A model generated the notes under the pieces. That model searched no databases. It saw only the letters and a list, made by a program, of their open reading frames with translations, and was not told the DNA's origin. From Candidatus Methanomethylicaceae archaeon (GTDB taxonomy: Archaea > Thermoproteota > Methanomethylicia > Methanomethylicales > Methanomethylicaceae), in NCBI GenBank assembly GCA_015660995.1, contig JACTUC010000009.1, positions 2,008-66,007 on the forward strand: a stretch of 64,000 bases of DNA. Reading direction: 5' to 3'. Every line of letters begins with the position of its first letter. Position 1 is the stretch's first letter. This document shows positions 17,438 through 27,493 of the stretch, piece by piece. The position numbers and the translations under genes were made by a program.

Positions 17438-17713
17438 TTACCTGTTCGCTGTTGAAGGTTGAGACTCTATGAGAGCTTTCACTTTCTTTAGCTTTTCTAT
17501 CAGCAGGTCGTAGCTGGCAACTGGCTCGACTATAAGCCCCATGTCTTGGAGGGCCTTGATCCCCTCTTGTGAGTAGATCGGCGCCTCGATCTTGACAGGT
17601 TCGTCGAAGGGGTTCCCAACAACGTAGTCCCTGTAGGGGAGGTTTGCTCTATGCTCTACTACCCATCCCCCGAGGGTGATTACGTGTCGCTCACGTATGG
17701 CTATCTTGGGCAT
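17438..17713 (-). CDS. Hypothetical 91-aa protein between the hydrogenase genes and atpF
   Basis: It is tightly packed, with a 12-nt gap to the NuoH-like gene and a 9-nt gap to atpF. It is hydrophilic and I recognise no motif. Confidence 0.45.
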   Translation of the reverse strand: MPKIAIRERHVITLGGWVVEHRANLPYRDYVVGNPFDEPVKIEAPIYSQEGIKALQDMGLIVEPVASYDLLIEKLKKVKALIESQPSTANR

Positions 17714-17725
17714 TTTTTTACACCT

Positions 17726-18769
17726 CTATATACTGACTGCCAGAATCATTGCAAGTACCCCTATTGCGGATAGGCCTATGGCTACCGGATAGATCTGCCT
17801 GAAGGTGAGTATGGGAGAGAAGGCAACAAGCACAGCCAGGCAGACAGGCAGAATGATGCTGAGGAGCATGTTGAGCAGGAAGACGAATGGAGTGAACGGA
17901 TCAAAGGGTATGCCGATGAAAAGGGTCACGAATATGCTGGAGAGGGCGAAGAGGAGCAAGTTCCGCATCACGTAGTAAGCTGCCCTCAGGGTTGAGGCAT
18001 ACTCAAGAACCCCTCCTTCGATGACGTCGATCTTCGCCTTGAGGATGCTGAAGGGCTTCTCGTTAAGGAGGATTGTGTACCCGAGGAAGAAGGGGATAGT
18101 GGCGAGGAAGCCCGGAACTGTGAAGAGGATTGGGTGGCTCGGCAGCGGCAGGCCATACCAAGGCGCGGAGAAGAATGCGGGGTTCTGGAAGGATACGACA
18201 TCGGAGATCAGTATGCTCTTTCCAACCACGAAAGGCACAATGAGAGCAAGATAGATGGGCAACGATCCGATGGCCATCATCTTGATGGCCCTCTCGGCTG
18301 AGTGCTGTTCCACAAACTCCCTCCTGGTACCTATGTGTTTTGAGCCTTTGGCAAGGTCAGGCATCGGCATGGATGTGGAGAGGATGGACTGGGATTGGGA
18401 GCCCATGAAGACGTATATGACCTCCTCGATCTTGAGGAGCCCCACTATCCCCAGTATGCTCCCCCAACTGAGCACTGCCCACCAATAGGGCGTGCTGAAT
18501 AGGAGGAGGAACGCCACCACGACGACGCCAAGGTATACAGAACATTTGTACAGCCGCGGCATCTGGGCTATTGGCTCCACCTTCTCCTTGTAGGTGAACT
18601 TGATTACTGACCAAAAGCCTGGGGTCAGGATCGGCGGGCCGATCCGCTGCTGGATCCTAGCCTGCACCTTCCTCTCTATCCCTGGGAGTACCAGGCTGTA
18701 AAGAGTTGCAATGACTATTGCGATAACTGAAGACGCAATTAACAGGAGGGTGAACGAGATTGTGTCCAT
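17726..18769 (-). CDS. NuoH/EchB/MbhM-like membrane subunit of the energy-converting hydrogenase
   Basis: 347 aa multi-TM protein. ERKVQARIQQRIGPP is the NuoH-family signature. Confidence 0.8.
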   Translation of the reverse strand: MDTISFTLLLIASSVIAIVIATLYSLVLPGIERKVQARIQQRIGPPILTPGFWSVIKFTYKEKVEPIAQMPRLYKCSVYLGVVVVAFLLLFSTPYWWAVLSWGSILGIVGLLKIEEVIYVFMGSQSQSILSTSMPMPDLAKGSKHIGTRREFVEQHSAERAIKMMAIGSLPIYLALIVPFVVGKSILISDVVSFQNPAFFSAPWYGLPLPSHPILFTVPGFLATIPFFLGYTILLNEKPFSILKAKIDVIEGGVLEYASTLRAAYYVMRNLLLFALSSIFVTLFIGIPFDPFTPFVFLLNMLLSIILPVCLAVLVAFSPILTFRQIYPVAIGLSAIGVLAMILAVSI

Positions 18770-18772
18770 TTT

Positions 18773-19969
18773 TCAATGCCTCCAACCGTAATTCCTAACA
18801 ACCTCCTGATCGGTCATCACCCTGCTCCTCCCCTTCTCCACGACCTCGGCTCTCGTGCAGCACGTGAGGCATGGGTCGCAGCTGGCGATCGTGACCATAG
18901 CGTCGGTCACATGGTCCCCGATGCAGGCCTGCTCCATGGCTGCCAGGTTGGTTATGGTCGGGGTCCTTATCTTGTAATTGCGGATCAGGCCATGCTCGTC
19001 CAGACCATAGGAGTGCATGAGCTCGCCTCGGTAGGTCTCGATATAGGCAATTGTGTAGTCCATCTTGCCTGCAATCCACTGCCTGTTAACCACCGGACCC
19101 TCAGGGAGGTTCTTCACAACCTGCCTCATGATCTTGATACTCTCGAATATCTCCAGGGCTCTTGCTACTACTCTAGCCTTGTTGTCGCCCTCGTTGAGGA
19201 CTATGACCTTGAAGTCGAATGGTTTGTACTCCTTCATATCTCTCCTCAGGTCGAAGTCCCACCCGGAAGCCCTGCCAGTTGGCCCTGTGGCATACCACTT
19301 AATGGCTTCGTCTTTTGAGAGCAGCCCGACGCCAGTCAGCCTTGACATCACCATGGGGTCAGCCATGATCCTATTGACATAATCCGTGTATTTGTCCTCG
19401 AACTCGTCGAGCCTGCTGAGAATGGTCTTCTTCAGCGGCTCGGTTAGATCCGCCCTGGGCCTGATGCCGCCTATGATCGGGACGGACGCCATGACCCTGT
19501 TACCGCCTATGTAAGCCATCAGGTCCATGAATGTCTCCCTTAGCAGGAAGGAACGCATGGCGAATGTCTCGTGGCCAAGCACCTCGAAGGCGTGACCAAA
19601 GAAGAGGAGGTGGCTAGTCATTCGCTGGATCTCGTGGACTAAAACCCTGATGTAGCTCGCCCTCGTAGGCACTTCTATGTTCAGGCCACCCTCAATTACC
19701 CTGACAGCATTGAAGGCGTGGACATTGGAGCATATGCCGCAGACCTTCTCCGCAATGACCAGGGCCCTTTCAATCGGCAGTCCCTCGAAGAGCTTTTCTA
19801 TGCCCCTGTAAGCCACATTGACGGTCAGCTCGCAGTCCTCGACATACTCGTCGTTGACAAACAGCCTTATCCTGTACGGTTCGAGAAGCGCTGGATGGAT
19901 CGGACCGAAGGAAAGCTCCTTCTCTATTTCGACCACTTCTTTCTGCTTCACTGGGTTCTGGCTTGCCAT
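18773..19969 (-). CDS. Group-4 [NiFe]-hydrogenase large subunit
   Basis: 398 aa. L1 motif EKVCGICSNVHAF and L2 motif DPCLTCCTR followed by a 25-aa C-terminal extension. GPIHPALLEP is also present. Confidence 0.9.
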   Translation of the reverse strand: MASQNPVKQKEVVEIEKELSFGPIHPALLEPYRIRLFVNDEYVEDCELTVNVAYRGIEKLFEGLPIERALVIAEKVCGICSNVHAFNAVRVIEGGLNIEVPTRASYIRVLVHEIQRMTSHLLFFGHAFEVLGHETFAMRSFLLRETFMDLMAYIGGNRVMASVPIIGGIRPRADLTEPLKKTILSRLDEFEDKYTDYVNRIMADPMVMSRLTGVGLLSKDEAIKWYATGPTGRASGWDFDLRRDMKEYKPFDFKVIVLNEGDNKARVVARALEIFESIKIMRQVVKNLPEGPVVNRQWIAGKMDYTIAYIETYRGELMHSYGLDEHGLIRNYKIRTPTITNLAAMEQACIGDHVTDAMVTIASCDPCLTCCTRAEVVEKGRSRVMTDQEVVRNYGWRH

Positions 19970-19970
19970 G

Positions 19971-26094: not shown

Positions 26095-26573
26095 TTGTTC
26101 AGCCTCCTCTGATAACTATAATAATAAGCGTTGGCGAGCGCGTTCCCCGAGAACGGGAGGAGCAGGAAGAAGAAGAATCCTACGGCGACGAGGTCAAACC
26201 GGAAGATCAGGATTCCGACGAAGATCATCACCAGGGAGCAGTCAGTGTCTATGACCCCGGCTATGTGGTTTCTCGCATAGAATATGTTCGGGCCGTACTC
26301 TTCTCCGAACCTGAAGAAGCCTACGGTGGCGGCGATTATCGGGATCGTGCCAGCGAAGAGTATCCCTGCCGCCCCCAGCTTCATCAGAGCGGATGCTGCA
26401 ATTCCTATGTCTACGCCCAGAAGGATCAGAATGGCAAGAAGCGCAGCGAATATAAATGCTGCATATATGGCGAGCCTGCTGGGATCCACTATGAAAGATC
26501 CCTTCCTTATGGTCCAAGCAACAAAGGCCATCACTATCGCAGCATAAATCAGGGTGAATATCTCCTCGTACAT
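26091..26573 (-). CDS. Mrp-type membrane subunit (MrpG/MbhC-like?)
   Basis: 160 aa with 4 TM segments. Confidence 0.45.
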   Translation of the reverse strand: MYEEIFTLIYAAIVMAFVAWTIRKGSFIVDPSRLAIYAAFIFAALLAILILLGVDIGIAASALMKLGAAGILFAGTIPIIAATVGFFRFGEEYGPNIFYARNHIAGVIDTDCSLVMIFVGILIFRFDLVAVGFFFFLLLPFSGNALANAYYYSYQRRLNK

Positions 26574-26575
26574 TC

Positions 26576-26890
26576 CTAGCCCTCCGTCCTGAACAGCCTA
26601 GCGAAGATTATCGTCCCCACAGTGCCAAGCACAAGCAGGGCTATCGCGGTGTCTCTCGCGAATCCAACATTGAAGAGCTCTGGGAGGGAGATGAGATAGA
26701 GACCGACCCCCGCTACGGTTGTGAAGGAACTGACCCCCATCAGCGCAGTCACAGCCTCTCCCTTCAGGGACAACCTCAAGGCTCCGAGACCTGCGATCGA
26801 GACTGCAACCATGAAGACCAAGGCTGCCCAGAAGAAGGCAGTCTCCGCGAAGTCGTTCAATATGTTAGGGGCGATCATTTTCCGAGCCAC
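26576..26890 (-). CDS. MrpF/MnhF-like subunit
   Basis: 104 aa with 3 TM segments, positioned after the MrpE-like gene as in mbhA-B. Confidence 0.5.
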   Translation of the reverse strand: MARKMIAPNILNDFAETAFFWAALVFMVAVSIAGLGALRLSLKGEAVTALMGVSSFTTVAGVGLYLISLPELFNVGFARDTAIALLVLGTVGTIIFARLFRTEG

Positions 26891-27180
26891 CCCTCCACAT
26901 GAGGCTCCATGGGTATGATTTCGCCCTTGGTTCTCGGATTGATTGAGCCAAGGAGGATCGTCTTGGCTTGCGAGTCCATGTCAATGACAACGGTTCCTGG
27001 AGTATAGGTGATGCTGTTTGCCAGCATTATTTGGGATGCTGTATGCTCAAATCCCATGTCTATTGTGATGAGGCACGGGTCAATGTCCCCATTCATGCAT
27101 CTCTTGCTGACGTCTATAATGGAACCTATTATCTCCCTTACCAACCTCAGCCAGTACCTTACTCCCCACACAAAACCCAT
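26875..27180 (-). CDS. MrpE/MnhE-like subunit (MbhA-like)
   Basis: ITYTPGTVVIDMD resembles the MnhE 'TLTPGT' signature. Confidence 0.6.
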   Translation of the reverse strand: MGFVWGVRYWLRLVREIIGSIIDVSKRCMNGDIDPCLITIDMGFEHTASQIMLANSITYTPGTVVIDMDSQAKTILLGSINPRTKGEIIPMEPHVEGWLGK

Positions 27181-27187
27181 GCTGGAT

Positions 27188-27493
27188 TCACCTTACAACT
27201 TTTTTCAGTTCGAGGATGAAATGCCGCCCACAATCCATATAGTAGCCCTCGCCACCTGGCATGACTTCTATCGCTATGGTGCGTTCCCTTCCGCTCCCAA
27301 CTGAGATATTGAGGTGCACCATTCTTCCGGAGATCTTCTTGTGAAGGTGCATCACCCCTTTGGAAGGATCGTCCAGAGAAATGGAATAGTTCAGGGCAGT
27401 CGCCACGTCCTTTGCTTTCTCATAGAGGGAGGGACCATTTGTATAGAAGTGCGCAAATAGCGTTGGCGCCATATAGCTACATAGCCCTCTCAA
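27188..27493 (-). CDS. Hypothetical protein, first ORF of the hydrogenase-ATPase array
   Basis: 101 aa soluble ORF, 7 nt upstream of the mrpE-like gene. I recognise no motif. Confidence 0.35.
   Translation of the reverse strand: MRGLCSYMAPTLFAHFYTNGPSLYEKAKDVATALNYSISLDDPSKGVMHLHKKISGRMVHLNISVGSGRERTIAIEVMPGGEGYYMDCGRHFILELKKVVR

Follow-up and report, generated by a model that had tools for sequence, protein, structure and literature searches.

A predicted ehb operon, with its polyferredoxin divided over three genes, in a Candidatus Methanomethylicaceae archaeon

The minus-strand genes at 17438-27493 of the window (the whole 64,000 nucleotide stretch of Candidatus Methanomethylicaceae DNA that was analysed) very probably form an ehb operon, the gene set for the energy-converting [NiFe] hydrogenase B of HydDB group 4i; from the sequence we put the probability of this at about 90%. 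The group 4i label rests on subunit similarity and on gene order in comparison with ehbA-P. Analysis of the ORFs with Pfam and NCBIfam gives an operon of 18 genes (Table 1), and 17 of these map one-to-one, by position, onto Methanobacterium ehbA-P by BLASTP, the exception being the first ORF. In BLASTP each protein finds its best match in the Methanobacterium gene at the corresponding position, although the match is weak for EhbJ, and identities range from 25% to 61% across the subunits. The curated NCBIfam cutoffs are exceeded by EhbA (NF004922, 102 bits against 99), EhbE (NF005618, 126 against 107) and EhbL (NF004914, 179 against 163). Matches are weak for EhbB, EhbC, EhbG and EhbJ, and EhbF falls below its NCBIfam cutoff; the lineage is divergent.

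The first-pass annotation had already recognized an energy-converting [NiFe] hydrogenase with an Ehb-like gene order and no NuoC, and both the orthology to ehbA-P and the Pfam and NCBIfam assignments agree with this. The minus-strand genes that it listed are all present (Mrp-like subunits, polyferredoxins with 4, 6 and 4 clusters, and the 2x[4Fe-4S], small, large and NuoH-like subunits). It had named, as a result that would refute it, a plain ortholog of a known Mbh or Ehb of equal composition, and in essence we find just that for Ehb. On sequence, the cluster is neither a hybrid nor a new type of hydrogenase. Ehb in Methanomethylicia, including the EhbHI fusion, has already been published: Ehb and the fusion were reported for Methanomethylicales (Adam et al., 2022, Sci Adv; PMC9635834), and another study found Ehb in each of its six Ca. 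Methanomethylicia MAGs (10.1101/2022.08.18.504445). The region is best annotated as ehbA-P (group 4i) rather than as a new Mrp-linked hydrogenase class, and its importance beyond annotation is small.

Table 1. Features of the putative ehb operon and the adjoining ATP synthase genes (positions in the window)
Feature	Description	Position	Strand	Evidence
ORF X	94 aa, hydrophilic, operon head	27188..27472	-	specific to Methanomethylicia
EhbA	MnhE-like	26875..27180	-	PF01899, 5e-14
EhbB	MrpF-like	26576..26890	-	NF009254, 1.2e-11; weak in Pfam
EhbC	MnhG/EhaC-like	26091..26573	-	PF03334, 1.6e-5
EhbD	MbhD family	25837..26094	-	PF13244, 4e-15; 52% identity to EhbD
EhbE	NuoK/MnhC-like	25470..25850	-	PF00420, 2e-16; 50% identity to EhbE
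EhbF	MrpD/NuoN-like antiporter subunit, 517 aa	23920..25473	-	PF00361
EhbG	small membrane subunit, MJ1308 family	23606..23932	-	26% identity to EhbG, E 3e-7
EhbH-EhbI fusion	MbhE-like N-terminal part + MnhB domain	22742..23602	-	PF04039, 2e-8
EhbJ	small membrane subunit	22461..22742	-	operon position; weak similarity to EhbJ, E 0.006
EhbK1	polyferredoxin, 4 [4Fe-4S] motifs	22001..22459	-	four CxxCxxCxxxCP; 39% identity to EhbK residues 1-146
EhbK2	polyferredoxin, 6 motifs	21339..22004	-	top match EhbK residues 137-327
EhbK3	polyferredoxin, 4 motifs	20908..21342	-	top match EhbK residues 330-441
EhbL	2x[4Fe-4S] ferredoxin subunit (NuoI-like), 164 aa	20417..20911	-	44% identity to EhbL
EhbM	[NiFe] small subunit (NuoB-like)	19971..20420	-	PF01058, 5e-29; 61% identity to EhbM
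EhbN	[NiFe] large subunit	18773..19969	-	both CxxC pairs present
EhbO	NuoH-like membrane subunit	17726..18769	-	PF00146, 5.5e-20; 46% identity to EhbO
EhbP	small hydrophilic Ehb-specific subunit, 91 aa	17438..17713	-	PF10622, 4.5e-18
A-type ATP synthase genes	atpF, E, A, B, D, c, I and atpC	9292..17428	- for atpF, E, A, B, D, c, I; + for atpC	Pfam

The large subunit has intact metal ligands (CGIC, C77/C80; DPCLTC, C367/C370) and is 73-96% identical to Methanomethylicia proteins labelled EhbN by JGI and 54-57% identical to Methanobacterium EhbN. Its best 120 matches are EhbN-named or Methanomethylicia/Methanobacterium proteins, and the nearest relatives, which are named EhbN, come from Methanomethylicus and Methanosuratincola. 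EhbM has the CNGC motif and two more cysteines, giving four at positions 22, 25, 90 and 127. The true start of EhbL is the ATG at 20911 and not the GTG at 21025. The 91-aa ORF at the end of the operon, which was missing from the earlier gene list, is EhbP (65.5 bits to PF10622 against a cutoff of 27).

A NuoC homolog among the small ORFs had been proposed as the finding that would overturn the first reading, and none was found in the operon with Pfam, NCBIfam or fold comparison. There is no match to Complex1_30kDa (NuoC, PF00329) in any operon ORF by Pfam or NCBIfam, no NuoC-like N-terminal domain was found on EhbN (the alignment with HycE begins at HycE residue 194), and the folds of the hydrophilic proteins ORF X and EhbP gave no NuoC match. 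Complex1_30kDa is likewise without a match in the four Ehb loci that have gene-by-gene Pfam listings. Of the Ehb subunits, just four are similar to core subunits of complex I (Kaster 2011, PMC3087415). Ehb normally lacks NuoC.

HMM assignment of the small membrane ORFs found MnhE, MrpF, MnhG, MbhD, NuoK/MnhC and MnhB types. Identity to the Methanobacterium orthologs is 42% for EhbA and 25% for EhbB (E 7e-6). EhbC is 160 aa long compared with 91 aa in Methanobacterium; the excess is an N-terminal extension of about 70 residues, and residues 69-157 align with Methanobacterium EhbC (E 4e-10). The top NCBIfam model for EhbF is by far NF004920, 'energy conserving hydrogenase EhbF' (9.4e-111), but its score of 371 bits is below the curated cutoff of 578; full-length identity to Methanobacterium EhbF is 35%. 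Syntenic homologs of EhbG carry PF27305. In the fused subunit the N-terminal part resembles EhbH (33%) and the C-terminal part EhbI (27%), a fusion known from Methanomethylicales, Methanofastidiosales and Methanococci (PMC9635834). ORF X is a conserved, lineage-specific gene at the head of the operon and homolog alignment indicates that it most likely starts at ATG 27472, not at TTG 27493 of the mechanical ORF. No gene of the operon was assigned to EhbQ, the one after ehbP being atpF; the set of Ehb subunits given by Adam et al. likewise consists of EhbA-P only (PMC9635834).

The subunit assignments predict a NiFe site in EhbN and a proximal [4Fe-4S] cluster in EhbM, with EhbL contributing two clusters and EhbK1-K3 fourteen. 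The first-pass annotation had drawn an electron wire of 17 clusters, and its count of 14 + 2 + 1 stands; such a wire is not exceptional, since it equals that of the published Methanothermobacter Ehb, which has 14[4Fe4S] in EhbK, 2[4Fe4S] in EhbL and the EhbM cluster (PMC3087415). The ion-translocating membrane arm would consist of EhbO, the antiporter-like EhbF and the small Mrp-like subunits EhbA-E and EhbG-J. By analogy with Methanococcus and Methanothermobacter Ehb, H2 <-> 2H+ + 2e- would be coupled to reduction of ferredoxin or polyferredoxin, driven by inward ion flow, and the low-potential electrons would pass to ferredoxin-dependent anabolic enzymes. The reaction should be reversible in principle.

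Candidatus Methanomethylicaceae is a lineage of H2-dependent methyl-reducing methanogens. The gene after ehbP is atpF, and the ATPase genes (in the order atpF, E, A, B, D, c, I) begin 9 nt past the ehbP stop codon. In all 15 Methanomethylicia loci where the flank is covered the ehb genes are immediately followed by those of the A-type ATPase, and this holds in no other lineage compared. This adjacency favours a possible, though less probable, reading in which the same Ehb works towards H2 evolution and energy conservation: it would oxidize reduced ferredoxin, reduce protons and pump out ions, and these ions would drive the ATP synthase whose genes come next. Consistent with this, for Ca. Methanomethylicia Lynes et al. 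count Ehb as one of the complexes 'establishing a proton gradient' (10.1101/2022.08.18.504445). However, direction cannot be read from gene adjacency, net evolution of H2 would seem to work against an H2-dependent methyl reducer, which consumes H2, and genetics in M. maripaludis shows Ehb to be anabolic and gradient-consuming (PMC3087415). The ion-gradient-building role suggested for Methanomethylicia Ehb (10.1101/2022.08.18.504445) runs counter to the anabolic role shown in Methanococcus. Positions 1-7625 of the window carry another group-4 hydrogenase-like cluster, this one with NuoC.

The only small peculiarity of the locus is the polyferredoxin. When compared with EhbK, the three pieces together are collinear with the single-gene protein end to end and motif for motif. 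The CxxCxxCxxxC motifs number exactly 4+6+4 = 14, all intact, and both cuts fall in inter-domain linkers. EhbK1 starts at ATG 22459, its stop overlaps the EhbK2 start in the sequence ATGA, and the EhbK2 stop overlaps the GTG start of EhbK3 in GTGA. Because the pieces are collinear, the cuts lie in linkers and stops and starts overlap within 4 nt, EhbK1-K3 are most likely made in equal amounts through translational coupling and would most likely assemble into the 14-cluster module of the single-gene EhbK.

The first-pass annotation called the three-gene arrangement unusual. The split of EhbK is indeed real, but on the sequences it is minor and a trait of the lineage rather than a one-off. All 16 Methanomethylicia loci examined have a 4+10 or a 4+6+4 layout and the sum is always 14. 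Throughout Methanomethylicia the polyferredoxin has the K1|K2 break, which also occurs in Methanofastidiosa, the 4|10 form being common to Methanosuratincola and Methanofastidiosa. The 6|4 break recurs in seven other Methanomethylicia genomes (L005, L006, L007, L009, L010, L012 and L018), in the same linker and with the stop overlapping the start codon. The frames of K2 and K3 differ, as expected from a 1-nt indel error, and the fused 10-cluster form is present in close relatives, so that an assembly or sequencing frameshift in a single ehbK, or a decaying pseudogene, might be suspected; the identical break in seven independently assembled genomes, the 14 intact motifs and the class-wide K1|K2 break make this very improbable. 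On the tree, genomes with the 6|4 state are interleaved with the others; together with the encoding of EhbK in pieces, this indicates that polyferredoxins can be cut at the linkers between their domains.

It is conceivable, but we think quite doubtful, that a modular polyferredoxin whose linker is repeatedly split and re-fused, ORF X and co-transcription with the ATPase jointly make Methanomethylicia Ehb a distinct unit. In that case ORF X, which is KA1/TBP-like and lineage-specific, may be an extra subunit or an assembly factor, and ehb and the A-type ATP synthase may be co-transcribed, coupled in expression or even one assembly. If true, this would be a hydrogenase-ATPase coupling of a kind not seen in classical methanogens. 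The class-wide ehb-ATPase linkage could inform studies of energy conservation in newly cultured Thermoproteota methanogens. EhbK in pieces, the conserved ORF X and the conserved linkage are points of modest specialist interest.

The first-pass annotation took the Mrp module as Mbh-like and the rest as Ehb/Eha-like, a mix that was not borne out: the canonical ehbA-J genes of Methanobacterium show an identical succession of Pfam families, and because the Mrp-like module belongs to canonical Ehb the cluster is not an unusual Mbh/Ehb mix. A new group-4 class joining an Mbh-type Mrp module to an Ehb/Eha-type electron-input module, for which the Pfam names of several small subunits ('MbhD', 'MbhE' and Mnh/Mrp families) might speak, is scarcely credible, as the best match of every subunit is an Ehb ortholog, and the one-to-one mapping onto ehbA-P already refutes it.

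Pyrococcus furiosus Mbh (PDB 6CFW, group 4d) resembles the ehb operon's product in carrying its group-4 [NiFe] module on a membrane arm derived from Mrp. Among solved structures MbhL comes nearest to the large subunit, but at only 2e-47 in the PDB search the similarity is far below that to EhbN (54% identity, E 2e-151). Mbh has a NuoC homolog (MbhK), no polyferredoxin and no EhbP, whereas the ehb operon shows the reverse. Membership of group 4d was therefore rejected, since NuoC is absent, three polyferredoxins are present and the MbhL match is so weak. Eha (EhaA-T, group 4h) is a sister hydrogenase which, like the ehb operon, has polyferredoxins and no NuoC; by description it is set apart by its 6- and 10-cluster polyferredoxins (EhaP and EhaQ) and its Eha-specific subunits. 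Membership of group 4h was rejected because EhbP and EhbF/EhbL-type subunits are present and the polyferredoxin pieces are collinear with EhbK.

The Ehb of Methanothermobacter, Methanobacterium and Methanococcus maripaludis (EhbA-Q, 4i) agrees with the operon in subunit families and A-to-P order, in the presence of EhbP, the absence of NuoC and intact NiFe ligands, and in a 14-cluster polyferredoxin with a 2-cluster EhbL and a small-subunit cluster. In contrast with canonical Ehb, the window has EhbK in three genes (4+6+4) rather than one, a fused EhbH-EhbI, about 70 extra N-terminal residues on EhbC and ORF X before ehbA, and it abuts the A-ATPase genes. The ehb loci of Ca. Methanomethylicus mesodigestus and Methanosuratincola petrocarbonis, of the same lineage, are syntenic, with EhbN 74-77% identical. 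As in the window, they have ORF X, a fused EhbH-EhbI and ATPase genes downstream; their EhbK is in two genes (4+10), whereas the window and seven other genomes split the 10 into 6+4.

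The ORF listing and translation show a tight array of minus-strand genes, most of which lie a few bases apart or overlap by a few bases. Pfam families in the membrane part are MNHE, MrpF (weak), MnhG, MbhD and NuoK/Oxidored_q2, with Proton_antipo_M in the 517-aa protein and an MnhB domain in another protein. Other genes encode three multi-Fer4 proteins, a two-Fer4 protein, the small subunit EhbM (Oxidored_q6), the large subunit EhbN (Complex1_49kDa/NiFeSe_Hases) and a NuoH-like subunit (NADHdh). There are exactly 4, 6 and 4 CxxCxxCxxxC motifs in the polyferredoxins EhbK1, EhbK2 and EhbK3 (K1, K2 and K3) and 2 in the NuoI-like subunit; EhbM has four Cys (CNGC plus two) and EhbN carries CGIC and DPCLTC. 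No ORF of the operon matched NuoC (PF00329) in Pfam or NCBIfam. Taken together, the data confirm the gene content, the cluster numbers and the lack of a NuoC homologue described in the first-pass annotation, with slightly corrected start codons (EhbL, 20911; K1, 22459; and ORF X, 27472). The last gene, missing from that gene list, encodes the 91-aa EhbP (PF10622, 4.5e-18).

Features of the Ehb operon, the second complex-I-like cluster and their neighbours (window positions)
Feature	Position	Strand	Remark
Antiporter-like subunit	1474-2964	-	second cluster
NuoK	2961-3275	-	second cluster
Family-less ORF	3272-3547	-	probably continues NuoJ
NuoJ	3549-3803	-	second cluster
NuoA	3887-4225	+	second cluster
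NuoB	4229-4660	+	second cluster
NuoC	4641-5123	+	second cluster; PF00329, 4.6e-26
NuoD-like	5131-6270	+	second cluster
NuoH	6293-7249	+	second cluster
NuoI	7233-7625	+	second cluster
Acylphosphatase	7811-8191		
GCD14/PCMT-type methyltransferase	8148-8945		
ATPase c subunit	~12200-12560	-	
Ehb operon (ORF X and ehbA-P)	17438-27493	-	
EhbK3	20908-21342	-	4 motifs
EhbK2	21339-22004	-	6 motifs
EhbK1	22001-22459	-	4 motifs
EhbHI fusion	22742-23602	-	286 aa
ORF X	27188-27472	-	94 aa
TIGR00375-family protein	27657-28970	+	437 aa; 1.3e-62, below model cutoff
Prolyl-tRNA synthetase	28977-30425		

The 517-aa protein fits the NCBIfam model 'energy conserving hydrogenase EhbF' best (9.4e-111, below the curated cutoff), and EhbL, EhbA and EhbE each exceed the cutoffs of the models that fit them. 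The closest relatives of the large subunit in a database search are proteins of Ca. Methanomethylicus, Methanosuratincola and Methanomethylicia (formerly Verstraetearchaeota) at 73-96% identity, which carry the JGI label 'energy-converting hydrogenase B subunit N'; Methanobacterium EhbN ranks next (54-57%). ORF X, a hydrophilic protein at the head of the operon, is 100% identical to a hypothetical protein from a Ca. Methanomethylicaceae MAG, and its structure prediction used an alignment of 4 sequences. These protein matches assign the window to a Methanomethylicia methanogen.

Every window Ehb protein was compared by BLASTP with the 16 proteins of the Methanobacterium ehb operon, which run in the order MNHE, MrpF, EhaC-like, MbhD, NuoK, EhbF, MJ1308-family, 95-aa protein, MnhB, 82-aa protein, 451-aa polyferredoxin, 165-aa ferredoxin, small, large, NuoH-like and EhbP. 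The best match was the positional orthologue in every case (EhbA, 42% identity; EhbB, 25%; EhbC, 28%; EhbD, 52%; EhbE, 50%; EhbF, 35%; EhbG, 26%; EhbL, 44%; EhbM, 61%; EhbN, 54%; EhbO, 46%; and EhbP, 39%), the match of EhbJ being weak (E 0.006). The 286-aa protein matches EhbH in its N-terminal part (33%) and EhbI in its C-terminal part (27%). What was described as an Mbh-like Mrp module is thus the membrane arm that Ehb normally has. The absence of NuoC is likewise normal for Ehb. No more than four subunits of Ehb are similar to core subunits of complex I (Kaster et al., 2011; PMC3087415), and none of the four Ehb loci having gene-by-gene Pfam listings has a Complex1_30kDa match. The proposed wire of 17 clusters was counted correctly but is not exceptional: EhbK is published as a 14[4Fe4S] polyferredoxin (Kaster et al., 2011), so this is the standard Ehb complement.

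K1, K2 and K3 match residues 1-146, 137-327 and 330-441 of Methanobacterium EhbK, and when joined they align with the single-gene protein end to end and motif for motif. The 14-cluster polyferredoxin is therefore split between three adjacent genes as first described; the split is a trait of the lineage, shared by seven other genomes. A scan of GTDB species representatives gave 15 Methanomethylicia loci and six divergent loci (about 50-52% identity), three of the latter titled Altiarchaeota and the others 'uncultured archaeon'. The polyferredoxin region was fully readable at 16 Methanomethylicia loci (the window, Methanosuratincola petrocarbonis and 14 of the 15 scanned). EhbK occupies at least two genes at all 16, as 4+10 clusters at eight and as 4+6+4 at eight, window included; the total is 14 in every locus. 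Methanofastidiosa likewise have EhbK in two genes and a fused EhbHI. Five of the divergent loci (L019-L023, at about 50-52% identity), of which three are titled Altiarchaeota and two 'uncultured archaeon', encode EhbN, EhbP and an EhbL-like protein with 2 clusters. No polyferredoxin gene lies upstream, and these loci appear to lack EhbK altogether.

At the 6|4 site, a short linker (…SIKxVSWDGxIxDxCIRCGTC…) continues without interruption in the fused forms. In the split forms the reading frame ends after …SW(G/E)G(N/E)I(L/Q/E), and the next gene starts in a different frame with an ATG or GTG that overlaps the stop, directly preceding the next CIRCxTC motif. In the window, the K1/K2, K2/K3 and K3/L junctions are all 4-nt ATGA or GTGA overlaps, which is typical of translational coupling. 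Seven further genomes, each assembled independently, carry the break between K2 and K3, which rules out a sequencing artefact as the cause of the change of frame. Programmed frameshifting is not favoured, as the junction has no evident slippery heptamer. The 4+10 and 4+6+4 states are interleaved on a neighbour-joining tree of concatenated EhbN/O/F/M/L. This suggests that the linker has been repeatedly split or re-fused, tentatively so because the tree carries no support values.

Of the two directions in which Ehb could run, we favour the anabolic one in this host, with a probability of roughly 0.55-0.6. The genes themselves encode a complete [NiFe] module with intact ligands (EhbN/M), a chain of 2+14 ferredoxin-type cluster sites (EhbL and K1-3), and a membrane arm with NuoH-like, antiporter-like and Mrp-like subunits. 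By analogy with established Ehb biology (Kaster et al., 2011), H2 oxidation would drive reduction of low-potential ferredoxin, paid for by the ion gradient, and the reduced ferredoxin would serve anabolic ferredoxin-dependent enzymes. It is rather unlikely that Ehb runs in reverse and builds the gradient, a direction already suggested for Methanomethylicia (Lynes, 2022; 10.1101/2022.08.18.504445) and in keeping with the close ehbP-atpF linkage seen throughout the class.

In the window, atpF of the A-type ATP synthase begins 9 nt past the ehbP stop codon on the same strand (17415-17450). This adjacency, compiled for the window and loci L001, L002, L004-L015, L017, L018 and L024, is kept in 15 of 15 Methanomethylicia loci with enough flank (gaps roughly 8-40 nt) and is absent from the Methanobacterium, Methanofastidiosa and Altiarchaeota-like loci. 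The ehb and atp genes may be transcribed together as a single unit. Na+-binding c subunits typically have Ser/Thr after the carboxylate Glu and a Gln in helix 1. Here the Glu is followed by Ala, instead of Ser or Thr, and the first helix has no Gln, a weak hint that the coupling ion may be H+ instead of Na+.

The window has a second complex-I-like cluster at 1-7625, in divergent operons with genes on both strands (1474-7625). Both [NiFe] CxxC pairs (ERVCGICTSAH and IDPCFACMDR) are intact in its D-like subunit, which matches HycE (8.9e-87) and MbhL (5.5e-80) ahead of NuoD (4e-64) in a PDB search. This suggests that the cluster may be a genuine group-4 hydrogenase whose complex-I-type arm is complete, distinct from the Cys-less 'Fpo-like complex' that is commonly cited for Methanomethylicia. 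This cluster, the ATPase and Ehb make up a 27.5-kb bioenergetic island (1-27493), interrupted only by the acylphosphatase and methyltransferase genes; the M. petrocarbonis locus has the same ATPase and methyltransferase neighbourhood. Divergent from the ehb operon is the TIGR00375-family gene, whose M. petrocarbonis homologue is labelled MJ0043_C, followed by prolyl-tRNA synthetase; both neighbours are also found in Methanosuratincola. No rRNA or tRNA was found within the window (Rfam, ARAGORN).

Ehb has already been published for Methanomethylicales or Methanomethylicia (Berghuis, 2019; Lynes, 2022; Adam et al., 2022, PMC9635834). Adam et al. analyse the phylogeny of EhbA-P, show how the cluster is organised in Ca. 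M. mesodigestum and report the EhbHI fusion. The text and supplement of the last study do not mention the EhbK split, which its Fig. 3B may show. The window Ehb is thus a known system with a few minor undescribed details: an EhbK spread over three genes, ORF X and the linkage of ehb to the ATPase genes.
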